DNA of 64,000 bases, from assembly GCA_965200965.1 (NCBI GenBank), contig OZ241744.1:3264001-3328000 (forward strand), read 5' to 3'. The DNA is from an uncultured Candidatus Binatia bacterium. GTDB lineage: Bacteria; Desulfobacterota; Binatia; Bin18. The translations under genes were made by a program, and so were the position numbers. This document shows positions 27,134-30,850 of this stretch, piece by piece. Under the pieces are notes generated by a model that saw nothing but the letters and a program-made list of their open reading frames with translations, made no database searches and had not been told where the DNA came from. Positions within the stretch are counted from its first letter, which is position 1, and the number at the start of each line of letters is the position of its first letter.

Positions 27134-27231
27134 AGCGCTGTCCTCCCTGGTCAGCTGAGTCTAGCACAGGAGGCCGACAGGAAGACAGGACGCGGTTTGT
27201 GTTGGCCGCCCACCTCGGTTATAGTCTGGCC

Positions 27232-28137
27232 ATGCTGCAAGCCGGTGGAGCAACGGTTCATTTCTTGAACGCAGGCTTCTGGTATGACGACGGCGGGGCC
27301 CAGTTCGGCATTGTGCCGCGCGAGCTGTGGGCCAGAGAAAAGCCGCCCAACGACCGCAACCGGATCAGGCTGAGCCTGAGTTGCCCGCTGATCGTCTGCG
27401 GTCAGGACGTGATCCTGGTCGATACCGGCATCGGCAACCGCCTGAGCGAGCGTGAAGTCCAGGTCTACACCCCCGACCCGGCCGACAGGCTGGTCAAGGG
27501 ATTGGCTACGCTCGGCTTTGCGCCCCAGGATGTGACCCATGTGGTGATCTCGCACCTGCACTTCGATCATGTCGGCGGGCTGATTGACAAGACGCCTGAC
27601 GGTGAAGCGCGGCTGATTTTCAGCCGGGCCCAGGTTCTTATCCAGAAAGCCGAATGGGAGTTGGCCACCCAGCCGCCAGACGAACGCCTGGCCGCGGCCT
27701 ATCGCCACGCCCCGGAGTGCCTGCCCCCGCTCAAGCGCGTCGAACTCCTTGACGGCGATACACGGCTGACGCCGACGGTCCGCACCGCAGTCTCGGGCGG
27801 GCATACCGCCCCGCACCAGTGCGTGATTGTCGAGGCCGGCGGAACCGGCCTGATCCACTTGGCCGACATTGTGCCGACCACCTCGCACCTTCGGCCGGCC
27901 TGGAACGCCGCCTATGATACCGACCCGCTGACAACTCTTGCGGCCAAGAAGCGCTTTCTGGACGAAGCCCGGACCAAGAACCTGTGGGTGTCGTTCTCGC
28001 ACGATGACACGGTTGCGGCCGGCCGCCTCGCCCCCTCAAGGAGCAAAAGGCCGGAGCTGGCAGAGACCATAGCGATTGCAGCGACGGAGAGGCAGGAGAC
28101 ACAGGCGGGAGAGGTTGAGCAATGGCCACACTGCTAA
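27232..28137 (+). CDS. MBL-fold metallo-hydrolase (YtnP-like)
   Basis: DGGA.FG.VP, VDTG.G, SHLHFDHVGG, GHT..H, FSHD. Confidence 0.88.
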   Translation: MLQAGGATVHFLNAGFWYDDGGAQFGIVPRELWAREKPPNDRNRIRLSLSCPLIVCGQDVILVDTGIGNRLSEREVQVYTPDPADRLVKGLATLGFAPQDVTHVVISHLHFDHVGGLIDKTPDGEARLIFSRAQVLIQKAEWELATQPPDERLAAAYRHAPECLPPLKRVELLDGDTRLTPTVRTAVSGGHTAPHQCVIVEAGGTGLIHLADIVPTTSHLRPAWNAAYDTDPLTTLAAKKRFLDEARTKNLWVSFSHDDTVAAGRLAPSRSKRPELAETIAIAATERQETQAGEVEQWPHC

Positions 28138-28184
28138 AACACGAGAGAGCGAGCCACGGCCGCGCCGCCTGCTGAGCGTCTGCT

Positions 28185-29600
28185 ATGGCCTACGCAACAA
28201 GCATTCGATCCGAGCGCTTTGTGTTTGCCGACCTGCGCGAGGTCCTGGCCAAGGCCAATGAGGACAAATCAGGCGATTGTCTAGCTGGGATCGCGGCCTG
28301 CTCCGAACAGGAACGGGTCGCCGCCAAATGGGTCCTGGCCGACATTCCCCTGTCTGATCTGCTTGCCTGCCCCTTGATTGATCCCGATCAGGACGCGGTC
28401 AGTCGCCTGATCCTCGACAGCCTGGACCACGAGGCGTTTCACACGCTGGCCCATTTGACCGTTGGGGAGTTTCGGGAATATCTCCTTGACGACGCAACGG
28501 GTCAGCCACAACTCCAGCGCCTGCACGGGGCTATCCCGCCCGAGGCCGCAGCTGCGGTAGCCAAACTGATGAGCAACAAGGACTTGGTGCTGGCCGCGGC
28601 CAAAGTCCGCACCGTCACCCGCTGTCGCAATACAATGGGTGGGGCCGGGGTGCTGGGTATCCGTCTTCAGCCCAACCACCCCAGCGATGACCTGGGGGGT
28701 ATTCTGTTATCAGCCGTAGACGGCCTGCTGTTTGGCTGTGGGGATGCGGTGATTGGCGTCAACCCGGCCACCGAATCGGTTGACACCGTGTCAGCCATCT
28801 TGCACGGCCTCGACCGGCTGATCGAGACCTGTCAGATTCCGACCCAGGCCTGCTGCCTGGCCCATATCAGCACCCAACTGGCCAGCCTGGAGCGGGGCGC
28901 GCCGGTTGACCTGCTGTTCCAGTCGATTGCCGGCACGGAGGCGGCCAACGCCAGCTTTGGCATCACGCTGGAGCTGCTGCGTGAAGGACAACAACGGGTG
29001 CTGGAGCAGCATCGTCGGCGCGATGTGGAATGGGTCGGGGACAACGTGATGTATTTTGAGACCGGCCAGGGCAGCGCCCTGTCGGCCGATGCCCACCACC
29101 GGGTTGATCAGCTGACCCTGGAAGCCCGGACGTATGGGCTGGCACGGGTCTTTCAGCCCTTTCTGGTCAACAGCGTGGTCGGCTTTATCGGACCCGAATA
29201 TCTGGCTGACGAACGCCAGATCGTCCGCGCCGGCCTGGAAGATCACTTCATGGGCAAGCTGCTCGGTCTGCCGATGGGCTGTGATGTGTGCTATACCAAC
29301 CACGCTGCCGCGGACCAGAACTCGGCAGACAATCTGCTACTCCTGCTGGCCGCGGCCGGCTGCAACTATTTCATGGGCGTGCCGGGCGCAGACGACATCA
29401 TGCTCAACTATCAATCGACCAGCTTCCACGACGCGCTCGGCGTGCGCCGGCTGTTTCAGCTCACACCCGCCCCGGAGTTCCTGGCTTGGCTTGAGCAGAC
29501 CGGCATTTTTCACAATCGGCAGCCGGCCGAGGCCGACAGCCCGCTCCGCCAGCAGCTCGTTCGCCGTGTGCAGACAATTGAAGGGAGCCTCGGCGTATGA
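28185..29600 (+). CDS. eutB: Ethanolamine ammonia-lyase large subunit
   Basis: RLQPNHP.DD, GDAVIGVNPA, YFETGQGSALS, GLEDHFMGKLLGLPMGCDVCYTNH. Confidence 0.96.
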   Translation: MAYATSIRSERFVFADLREVLAKANEDKSGDCLAGIAACSEQERVAAKWVLADIPLSDLLACPLIDPDQDAVSRLILDSLDHEAFHTLAHLTVGEFREYLLDDATGQPQLQRLHGAIPPEAAAAVAKLMSNKDLVLAAAKVRTVTRCRNTMGGAGVLGIRLQPNHPSDDLGGILLSAVDGLLFGCGDAVIGVNPATESVDTVSAILHGLDRLIETCQIPTQACCLAHISTQLASLERGAPVDLLFQSIAGTEAANASFGITLELLREGQQRVLEQHRRRDVEWVGDNVMYFETGQGSALSADAHHRVDQLTLEARTYGLARVFQPFLVNSVVGFIGPEYLADERQIVRAGLEDHFMGKLLGLPMGCDVCYTNHAAADQNSADNLLLLLAAAGCNYFMGVPGADDIMLNYQSTSFHDALGVRRLFQLTPAPEFLAWLEQTGIFHNRQPAEADSPLRQQLVRRVQTIEGSLGV

Positions 29601-30376
29601 AACCTCCTGCTCACCACCCCCGTCAGGCCGACCTCATCCGAGCCGTTCGACACCGGACGCCGGCCCGCATCCTGATCGGCAGGGCCGGGCCCGCCTATCG
29701 GACCCATACCCAGCTCGCTCTGCGCCGGGATCATGCCGCGGCTCTTGATGCAGTCCAGGCCGAGCTTGAGCTTGAGCGAGACTTCGCTCCCGAACTGGTC
29801 AAGGGCTGGGGCTTGTTTATGGTGACGACCCGGGCCGAGACCAAGGCCGACTACCTGCTGCGGCCAGACCTGGGACGGCGTTTGAGTCCCCACGCTCGGC
29901 AACGCATCCAGGAGCGATGTCCACGCCGGGCTGACCTCCAGCTCGCCATTGGCGACGGTTTATCGGTGGCCGCGGTCAAAGCCCAGGTGCCGACGCTGCT
30001 TGATGAGCTGGCCCGGGGCGCGCAGCAGCAGGGCTGGCGCTTTGGTCAGCCGTTTGTGATTCGCCACTGCCGGGTGGGGGTGCTGAACGATATCGGGGAG
30101 ATTCTTGAGCCGAGTGTGGTGGTGTTATTGATTGGTGAGCGGCCCGGGCTGGCCACCGCCCGGAGTCTGTCGGCGTATATGGCCTATCAGCCACGCGCCG
30201 GCCATACCGACGCGGAGCGGAATCTCGTCTCGAATATCCACCACCGGGGCGTGACGCCCATCGCCGCGGCCGGACGCATTCTTGGGCTGGCGGAACGTTT
30301 GCGCCGCGCCCGGCACAGCGGGGTCAGTGTCAAGGAGCAGATCGCTGAACACCCGCACACGGGCCTGACAGGCTGA
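29597..30376 (+). CDS. eutC: Ethanolamine ammonia-lyase small subunit
   Basis: TPARI..GRAG, YLLRPDLGRRL, DGLS, LIGERPGL, DAERN.VSNIH. Confidence 0.95.
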   Translation: MKPPAHHPRQADLIRAVRHRTPARILIGRAGPAYRTHTQLALRRDHAAALDAVQAELELERDFAPELVKGWGLFMVTTRAETKADYLLRPDLGRRLSPHARQRIQERCPRRADLQLAIGDGLSVAAVKAQVPTLLDELARGAQQQGWRFGQPFVIRHCRVGVLNDIGEILEPSVVVLLIGERPGLATARSLSAYMAYQPRAGHTDAERNLVSNIHHRGVTPIAAAGRILGLAERLRRARHSGVSVKEQIAEHPHTGLTG

Positions 30377-30412
30377 GGCCGAAGAGGGTGTCTGGACGAG
30401 AAAGGGGGAGCG

Positions 30413-30748
30413 GTGGAAGACACGCGCCAGGCTCAGCAGGAATCACAGCCGGCCCAGGAGTTGCCGTTGTGTCCCATCTGCAACCTGTACGCCGCCCAAC
30501 TGCGCCGCGGCAAGCTTCAATGCAGAAACTGCGGGTTTATTGAATCGTGACATGACTGTTCGTCCTCTGGCAGAGGACAGGCCGAGTGGATTCGGGCCTA
30601 TAGCGCCGAAGGCTTTGAGGCGCATGTGGAGCAACAGTTGGGGCTGCTTGACCGTCTCGCCGCGGCTGTACAGCGGCCGAGCGCGAACGGCTGGTCAAAC
30701 ATTTACGAATACCTGTTCCGGGAGCAGGCCTATCGCCAGGAGCAGTGA
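30413..30748 (+). CDS. Candidate selenoprotein: small zinc-ribbon protein with UxxC (TGA at 30548-30550)
   Basis: Purine-rich RBS (30401-30410) then GTG. CPIC-x13-CRNCGFIES-[TGA]-HDC, then 65 sense codons to the stop at 30746. SECIS-like hairpin follows the TGA. Confidence 0.72.
30562..30578 (+). promoter_or_regulatory. Putative bacterial SECIS hairpin
   Basis: GTCCTCT-GGC-AGAGGAC perfect 7-bp stem beginning 11 nt after the TGA; loop GG at +19. Confidence 0.7.
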
Positions 30749-30850
30749 CCGGTCTAGGAGCAGTGATGAACTTTGGGACAATTGCGGCCAGAGCGATGGC
30801 CGTGGCCGAGCGAGCAGCGACTCCGTGGTGCCGAGGTCCCGGCCACCTTG

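Follow-up and report, generated by a model that had tools for sequence, protein, structure and literature searches.

The stretch of DNA analysed here (the window, 64,000 nucleotides) carries a metallo-beta-lactamase-fold gene, eutB and eutC in one run at positions 27199-30376. No microcompartment or reactivase genes were found among the nearby ORFs scanned. A GTG start at 30413, 36 nt past the eutC stop (30376), opens a reading frame that extends to 30748. The frame contains an in-frame TGA at codon 46 (30548-30550), which is followed by 65 open codons without an ATG and by a final TGA at 30746-30748. A promoter scan at the locus found none. A preliminary description had read this frame as a 111-aa selenoprotein with a UxxC motif, and its statements on the sequence itself (ribosome-binding site, GTG start, distance to eutC, TGA at codon 46, 65 open codons, no ATG) all hold. 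The features of the locus are as follows.

30404..30410, + strand: Shine-Dalgarno-like GGGGGAG, seen in the sequence; four sister genomes also have a purine run ahead of this GTG
30413..30562, + strand: probable real span of the micro-selenoprotein gene: 49 codons, the last four U-H-D-C, and then the position of the former stop (32/33 family loci stop 3-4 codons past the TGA; core pN/pS)
30470..30481, + strand: first CxxC knuckle (C20, C23), predicted zinc ligands (invariant in the family alignment; zinc-ribbon model)
30509..30511, + strand: Gly33, Cys in Cys-type homologues and most phage Sec forms (a profile comparison aligns the Gly with C34 of the Cys family)
30521..30532, + strand: second CxxC knuckle (C37, C40), predicted zinc ligands (family alignment; zinc-ribbon model)
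30548..30550, + strand: in-frame TGA, predicted selenocysteine 46 (TGA in 33/33 loci; Cys in 46/46 further homologues)
30551..30559, + strand: His-Asp-Cys codons completing UxxC, with C49 as likely Sec partner (variation nearly all third-position)
30560..30562, + strand: former stop codon, now TCG (a related strain has TTG, relatives TAG, TGA or TAA)
30562..30578, + strand: bSECIS-like hairpin, 7-bp stem, GGC loop (covariation; in relatives it overlaps the stop codon and continues past it)
30580..30581, + strand: point where 494 nt are deleted, taking with them the start of tenA and some two thirds of the gene (seen on alignment to four sister loci)
30581..30757, + strand: tenA (thiaminase II) 3' remnant, with 1-nt and 17-nt deletions, one Trp changed to Arg and one to TGA (30746-30748); original TAG at 30755-30757

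An assembly error is excluded by contigs from runs X1, X2 and X7 (three studies), which cross the locus with 0-3 differences, X1 and X2 being possibly the source of the DNA studied. A contig of run X11, from another study and with 23 differences, has the same deletion, TGA and hairpin. One run is labelled as a sponge metagenome.

Origin of the long reading frame

Residues 57-111 of the predicted product match the C-terminus of TenA, and the tail is at least 70% identical to the sister TenA C-terminus. Four congeneric genomes have an intact tenA 3' of the small gene (PF03070, E 3e-50 in one sister locus). Pairwise alignment with these four sister loci revealed in three cases a single 494-nt gap at 30580/30581, leaving only the last quarter of TenA (TIGR04306, PF03070) in the window. 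Compared to sister tenA, the remnant has lost both conserved Trp codons, and the Trp to TGA change created the present stop. Pfam and NCBIfam scans of the window protein gave weak generic zinc-ribbon and TenA matches only. A second strain retains the Trp. It has an extra -1/+1 frameshift pair (30624, 30717), and some 30 of its residues come from another frame, so the amino acids of the tail are not conserved. No TenA fusion was present among 16 longer homologues, by sequence or by Pfam label, and the tail is absent from every other of the 33 family loci described below. That the frame stayed net open in both strains is odd and is the sole point for a tolerated fusion. The long tail is almost certainly tenA debris. 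The proposed length of 111 aa was therefore not upheld, since the family protein has about 50 aa and ends 3-4 residues past the Sec, and the 65 open codons, being mostly tenA debris, lose their value as evidence of coding. Even where Sec has been called correctly, a frame that stays open past a TGA can be an artefact of a deletion. A second tenA, intact and distantly related, is located at C1:97307-98017 of the same genome (G000) and may have rendered the copy beside eutBC dispensable.

The TGA codon and its hairpin in the Binatia family

A read-through search of the order found the gene in 17 of 56 genomes (15 with one TGA, two decayed) and in 0/28 genomes of one genus. A metagenome scan gave 33 loci, comprising 25 of the Binatia type, 7 Cys forms and 1 other. 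Altogether 33 distinct Binatia-type loci were collected, and all 33 have TGA at the Sec site; 15 of them come from read-through genome searches able to show TAA and TAG too, 18 from a pattern permitting TGA, TGC or TGT only, and related sequences are not independent. Neither TAA nor TAG occurred at the site in the 15 loci of the read-through searches. The next stop was TAG in 27 loci, TGA in 3 and TAA in 2, and one locus, the window, had none. The stop thus follows 3-4 codons past the TGA in 32/33 loci, with a whole-codon indel ahead of it (17 loci stop after 3 codons, 15 after 4). The UxxC motif noted earlier is conserved in 32/33 loci. In the three codons past the TGA, minor alleles were counted at 2/99 first, 1/99 second and 34/99 third positions. 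Coding conservation past the TGA therefore covers the 3-4 codons that precede the true stop but not the tail of the 111-aa form. Against four sisters the core has pN of 0.04-0.06 and pS of 0.43-0.53 (pN/pS about 0.1); the tenA remnant scores similarly, hence this test cannot date a loss of selection. Database proteins end at the Ser just ahead of the TGA in 52 of 53 cases.

The gene is dispensable: besides its presence in only 17/56 genomes of the order, 4/33 loci have lost a Cys and one has lost the hairpin. Decayed copies were observed at L067 (G004:C1:3160728), L065 (G018), L064 (G025) and L066 (G009); the changes across them comprise TGA to TGG with the first knuckle lost, an insertion ahead of the TGA, and Cys-to-Trp or Cys-to-Arg substitutions. 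In one further family copy (L026 in G028, L074, L099) U-H-D-C-R-stop is intact and the hairpin is replaced by unrelated DNA right after the stop, upstream of a TIR-domain gene; such a copy would be unable to recode.

The hairpin described earlier as perfect, 17 nt long and beginning 11 nt after the TGA was confirmed. It reads GTCCTCT-GGC-AGAGGAC at 30562-30578, and its loop is 18 nt away from the TGA. Such an arrangement exceeds chance expectation: a strict rule (at least 6 bp of stem, GG loop 16-22 nt away) selected 443 of 113,132 TGAs of the genome (0.39%), and a looser rule 1,213 of 20,000 sampled TGAs. When one hairpin rule was applied throughout, it was satisfied by 32/33 TGA loci, compared to 2/18 cellular or metagenome Cys forms and 6% of random TGAs. 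Across the family 94.4% of cells are paired with 16 both-side changes, a value reached in 0/500 shuffles, although this test may be inflated by the relatedness of the sequences; slid-register controls gave 45-79% pairing. The element behaves as a bSECIS. Published constraints (loop of 3-9 nt, G in its two leading positions, 16-37 nt from the UGA, stem of 4-16 bp, MFE of -7.5 or lower; section 5 of PMC13188914) agree with the window hairpin (7 bp, GGC, 18 nt, -8.6 kcal/mol) and with 31/33 loci, as scored with our own implementation of them. An Rfam search over 30400-30800 gave 0 matches at E 10, SECIS models included. Because many bSECIS fall outside Rfam (a figure of 9 of 100 appears in the accessible part of 10.64898/2026.09.15.751765), an Rfam SECIS match is not a defining need.

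In relatives the stop codon's final base is paired at the stem foot (G-C for TAG, A-U for TGA or TAA), and the SECIS is therefore for the most part not translated there. The hairpin has no U tail, and a terminator scan called none there. A 4-bp hairpin over the HDC codons was considered as the cause of their conservation and was rejected, since a C/T change in the Cys codon breaks it in about half of the loci.

The genome encodes the Sec machinery, which had been named as a point to check: profile scores were 582 bits for selA, 367 for selB and 396 for selD (one internal TGA), all over the cut-off, and a tRNA-Sec is present. In the order the machinery is near-universal (selA in 54/56 and selB in 52/56 genomes), so that co-occurrence of gene and machinery does not discriminate. 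Recognisable genes elsewhere in the genome have three more in-frame TGAs with a hairpin of this kind. The selD hairpin has 6 bp and a GGC loop 17 nt from the in-frame TGA, and that of a rhodanese-like gene 7 bp and a GGC loop at 17 nt, compared to 7 bp, GGC and 18 nt for the candidate. The latter gene (G000:C1:1854855, - strand; rhodanese/sulfurtransferase-like, ITY-U-QGG) belongs to a known selenoprotein type (UxxG). A PrdB-like gene at G000:C1:3480320 (+ strand) reads U-P-V-C and has an 8-bp hairpin with a GTG loop. The main formate dehydrogenase of the genome has no internal stop.

Taken together, the TGA in 33/33 loci, the third-position variation, the covarying hairpin, the Cys in homologues and the machinery make it very likely that the TGA is decoded as selenocysteine in this family.

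Cysteine homologues and viral members

The preliminary description had named small zinc ribbons ending CxxCG[YF]xxSCxD as possible Cys homologues, and such proteins do exist. When six Cys sequences were added to the alignment, 46 new proteins were found, all with Cys at the Sec column. All 46 carry CG[FY]xxS-C-x[DE] and an extra Cys four residues ahead of the second knuckle. PF28087 (HVO_2523) is precomputed on 36 of the 46, and on none of the truncated Sec forms; it was absent from our local Pfam search results. A comparison of Sec and Cys profiles gave a probability of 97.9 (E 4e-13). Of 401 genomes of the class, 64 have a match; none of the 47 that belong to other Binatia families has an internal stop, and 12 of 15 loci retrieved show the motif with Cys. 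An Atlas search with a Cys homologue returned unnamed clusters and the HVO_2523 cluster at 0.90. The scaffold CxxC...CxxCG-x4-C-x-D of a stand-alone ribbon is shared with the HVO_2523 family (PF28087, NF041914), whereas in the Binatia Sec form the H-C-K motif has no Cys (G or N in 33/33 loci) and UxxC has been gained. NF041914 matched Cys forms and two viral Sec forms at E 1e-7 to 1e-3 (Cys homologues 19-32 bits, against a cut-off of 60) and gave no match for the window or sister proteins. In three proteins (P0116, P0118, P0125) a Cys-form ribbon is fused to the C-terminus of a domain of about 160 aa that reads, by its sequence, as receiver-like; this might hint at a signalling role.

Phylum-wide, 401 genomes searched with the Binatia alignment, and 301 genomes searched with NF041914, gave weak matches only, and those inspected were not family members. 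A search of 1.84 billion representative proteins returned 14 proteins, mostly truncated Binatia-type forms, and genome contigs scanned with one narrow word revealed no new lineage. On one metagenome contig (L111:598-702, - strand) an HCK-type ribbon reads ET-TGA-S-D-L-stop without a clear hairpin; other overlapping frames exist in the region, and the ribbon may be due to chance or be a decayed Sec form.

Scanned with a motif that has TGA at the Sec site, IMG/VR yielded 7 loci, 5 of them distinct; every one has the first CxxC, a feature absent from the pattern. The same pattern with TAG or TAA gave 0 and 0. A second pattern gave 34 TGA loci, 27 distinct after removal of 7 duplicates, of which 25 have the first CxxC and 2 do not; one of the 25, L243, is doubtful. 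With TAG or TAA at the Sec site, this pattern yielded 1 and 4 loci respectively, and no hairpin accompanied any of them. A SECIS-like hairpin was present in 20/25 viral TGA loci (17 with at least 6 bp) compared to 0/12 viral Cys forms, on a background of 842 of 15,189 TGAs in the same viral loci. Most of these hairpins place a loop of GTT or GTA precisely 17 nt past the TGA and show compensatory stem changes. A loose pattern gave 44 viral loci, 6 of which are family members; the remaining 38, without the first CxxC or with stops, were dropped as chance.

The genes recognised in the flanks are terminase, portal or head-tail genes in L176 and L195, helicase and exonuclease in L187, antirepressor and methylase in L184. 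The flank of L165 had no PHROG match, and two queries found no match in the GenBank phage collection. A global reassignment of TGA in these viruses was rejected for five long-flank loci, where the longest code-11 ORFs hold many TGG and are not sensibly longer under code 4. In 401 genomes the best match to an alignment of 17 viral Sec forms was the window gene (E 4e-7), the 17 forms having originally been found with patterns derived from this family. A tree (56 rows, 33 columns) grouped 11 Binatia Sec rows with the viral L154 on a long branch; 27 of its 53 branches are open, and at this resolution it can neither count Sec origins nor give the direction of transfer. One large low-GC clade among the IMG/VR loci (L216-L249, L151-L157) reads CHYQCxxCGYAEN-U-[QH]DISGR, followed by a lysine-rich tail. 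Some viral members end U-S-D-stop or U-x-D-P-stop.

The viral loci probably represent phage-encoded selenoproteins of the same family. As such they would form a sizeable set; the accessible part of a GOS survey reports few or no viral sequences among selenoprotein families (PMC9402790). We lean, somewhat tentatively, towards a broader reading in which HVO_2523-like ribbons constitute a hidden, widespread selenoprotein family. Tailed phages would encode it with a SECIS and use SelB and Sec-tRNA of the host for a redox switch of their own, and Sec would have been kept or regained in several lineages, each with exactly one partner Cys (cross-strand or C-terminal). If true, the family would be a natural experiment on the role of Sec in a zinc finger.

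No selenoprotein model of NCBIfam 20.0 matched any family member (scans of 4, 13, 6 and 13 proteins). The term star in the names UXX-star and KCU-star presumably denotes a stop, in which case the SECIS would lie largely behind it. By their names these proteins (NF041114, NF041211, NF033934) have Sec near the C-terminus, as here, but their motifs differ and the models do not match. The same applies to three other small Cys-rich selenoproteins, dual CXXC protein OS_HP3/DW (NF041197, RxU or GxU), the FmdB family (TIGR02605, UxxU) and hypothetical protein DG (NF049953, GUxG), all as given in the available part of PMC13188914. Table 1 of that source (119 entries) has no HVO_2523-like entry, and its accessible sections do not mention phages. 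Likewise, no description of the family was found in the accessible literature, including PMC13326102, PMC12013277, PMC9402790, 10.64898/2026.09.15.751765 and 10.64898/2026.04.03.716425, and no Sec form of HVO_2523 is reported there; BSepDB or Haft and Tolstoy 2025 could list the family. Small zinc-ribbon selenoproteins are known as a kind, and this family is absent from the catalogues checked, as the preliminary description had suspected. It adds a family missing from the 119-entry catalogue of 2026 (PMC13188914, Table 1). Such a class is overlooked by searches because Sec lies 2-6 residues from the end, so that truncated database entries look complete. In Haloferax, deletion of HVO_2523 led to loss of swarming and of growth on glycerol and to a gain of biofilm (available parts of PMC6562870 and PMC12949519). 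For these knockout phenotypes the same parts give no mechanism, and the Sec/partner-Cys swap offers a testable chemical hypothesis for micro-proteins of the HVO_2523 type.

Zinc ribbon, partner cysteine and alternative readings

AlphaFold predicted a three-strand zinc ribbon with a pLDDT of 78.6 for the Sec form, modelled with Cys, and of 68.9 for a Cys form. Foldseek gave no match in the PDB at E 0.001; the best fold matches were generic zinc ribbons, none significant. The Sec forms examined have at most one Cys beyond the four knuckle Cys. In 25 viral TGA forms this extra Cys is at position 33, and 0/25 have a Cys within 8 residues downstream. Where Cys33 is missing, a C-terminal Cys is found as UxxC or Ux4C, in 32/33 Binatia loci and in all three distinct viral loci of this kind (L154, L156, L157). 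Among the Cys forms, L213 has both Cys and L139 has neither arrangement exactly.

From these patterns a mechanism can be proposed. SelB would very likely bind the GGC-loop hairpin 18 nt downstream and insert Sec, after which the ribosome would add His-Asp-Cys and, in relatives, stop at the hairpin foot. C20, C23, C37 and C40 are likely to bind one zinc. Sec46 may fairly plausibly cycle between a selenolate and an Se-S bond with one partner Cys, as residue patterns and analogy suggest. The partner would be C49 (UxxC) in the Binatia lineage and the Cys at position 33 in Cys-type and most phage forms. A simple hairpin register, taken from the strand pattern, would put residue 33 cross-strand from residue 46. 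We thus favour, with some reserve, a zinc-ribbon protein of about 50 residues that likely has Sec four residues from its end and likely acts as a stand-alone redox switch or electron carrier; in the window its true stop was lost and a tenA remnant attached. From the copy here a product of 111 aa would result, its UxxC intact and its tail junk.

A possible analogue is the six-Cys tail of the class II ribonucleotide reductase NrdJ, in which, according to the accessible part of PMC5704485, four Cys are modelled on zinc and two form the reduction site, and all six are required for TCEP-driven activity (section 9). The NrdJ tail (CRD) has the layout CxxC-x9-C-..-CxxC-x5-C, with its last Cys (C945) at the Sec position, but it is the terminal part of a 150-220 aa domain and its third Cys is offset by one. 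A profile comparison gave a weak match (probability 10.7, E 0.003), and the NrdJ tail is best regarded as a functional analogue, homology not being established. The idea that the small protein stands in for a missing NrdJ tail was rejected, since the NrdJ of this genome keeps its own CRD.

Three alternatives concern the family as a whole. That the TGA is a plain stop, leaving a 45-aa four-Cys zinc ribbon with the hairpin as a terminator or RNase block, would agree with the gene callers, which end the protein there in 52/53 cases, with TGA being the commonest stop in this GC-rich genome and with the lack of an Rfam SECIS match. We consider it very improbable, because TAA and TAG never occur at the site in the 15 unbiased loci, the viral TAG and TAA controls gave 0 and 0, and 1 and 4 (no hairpins), versus 7 and 34 loci for TGA, variation past the TGA is of the coding type, homologues have Cys in the same column, and the hairpin has neither a U tail nor a terminator call. 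Scarcely more probable is a gene whose peptide matters little and which serves as a selenium gauge or sink, a SelB-dependent pause at the UGA tuning the next gene or soaking up host selenium, which would be attractive for phages. In most loci the gene does lie directly upstream of a same-strand gene (tenA, NIPSNAP, CoA transferase; terminase in L176 and L195), and in the sisters the tenA ribosome-binding site is within about 15 nt past the hairpin. These downstream genes are mutually unrelated, though, the zinc-ribbon residues are under strong purifying selection, and Cys forms without any hairpin are widespread. A third reading accepts Sec but as a metal ligand, U46, H47, D48 and C49 providing a site for a further metal (Cu, Hg, Fe or another Zn) in a metal sensor or chaperone instead of a redox carrier. 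Selenolate is a strong soft-metal ligand, the acidic residue two past the Sec or Cys is nearly invariant in cellular and viral forms, and a His beside Cys33 is conserved in the Cys forms. Yet viral forms have Q, S, T, D or E instead of His47, the constancy of Asp in pattern-found loci is partly built in, Asp being part of the search patterns, and a two-residue redox pair is the simpler account of one partner Cys that swaps; this reading appears unlikely, and the redox pair is preferred.

Two further alternatives concern the window copy, whose functionality we judge to be evenly balanced. Compatible with a redox zinc ribbon is the reading that the family is a real selenoprotein and this copy already a pseudogene decaying with tenA, to which we give slightly less than an even chance. 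Two strains have lost the stop, their codons differing in the middle base (TCG, TTG), the second strain has Gly33 changed to Ser at a position otherwise G or N in the family, the genome is the smallest among the genus members keeping the gene, and G004, G009, G018 and G025 hold decayed or interrupted copies. All five Cys, the TGA, HDC and the perfect hairpin are retained nonetheless, and the core pN/pS against the sisters is about 0.1, though that of the tenA remnant is similar. The reading in line with the preliminary description, a functional 111-aa selenoprotein with a C-terminal domain and partner of ethanolamine ammonia-lyase, is largely refuted and exceedingly improbable. It could draw on the frame, which 1-nt and 17-nt deletions that compensate each other keep open as far as the tenA end, with another net-zero pair in the second strain, and on eutC lying 36 nt upstream, an adjacency of eutBC that is kept in four sisters. 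Against it stand the TenA-like tail without its conserved Trp, the different frame of about 30 residues in the second strain, 0 other loci of 33 sharing the tail, no TenA fusion in any of the 16 longer homologues, and three other neighbourhoods without eutBC.

These neighbourhoods were surveyed in 52 scanned ORFs of 106 listed. Four arrangements were found within the same family: eutBC-gene-tenA; enoyl-CoA hydratase-gene-NIPSNAP-luciferase-like; a divergent Glu/Leu dehydrogenase with gene-CoA transferase; and ccmBC-gene. Adjacency to eutBC is confined to this genus, and Cys forms had no common neighbour (90 of 138 ORFs scanned). With its hairpin the gene travels on its own, a point against a partnership with EutBC, and EutBC is probably not the redox partner protein. 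Thus selenocysteine, the bSECIS, UxxC, the Cys homologues and the absence from catalogues survive from the earlier interpretation, whereas the 111-aa length and the 65 codons as evidence were wrong and the EutBC partnership is unsupported. The luciferase-like gene found 3' of tenA in the sisters is absent from the window. At the end of the tenA remnant (30740-30770) the window has a short direct duplication (AGGAGCAGTGA twice).
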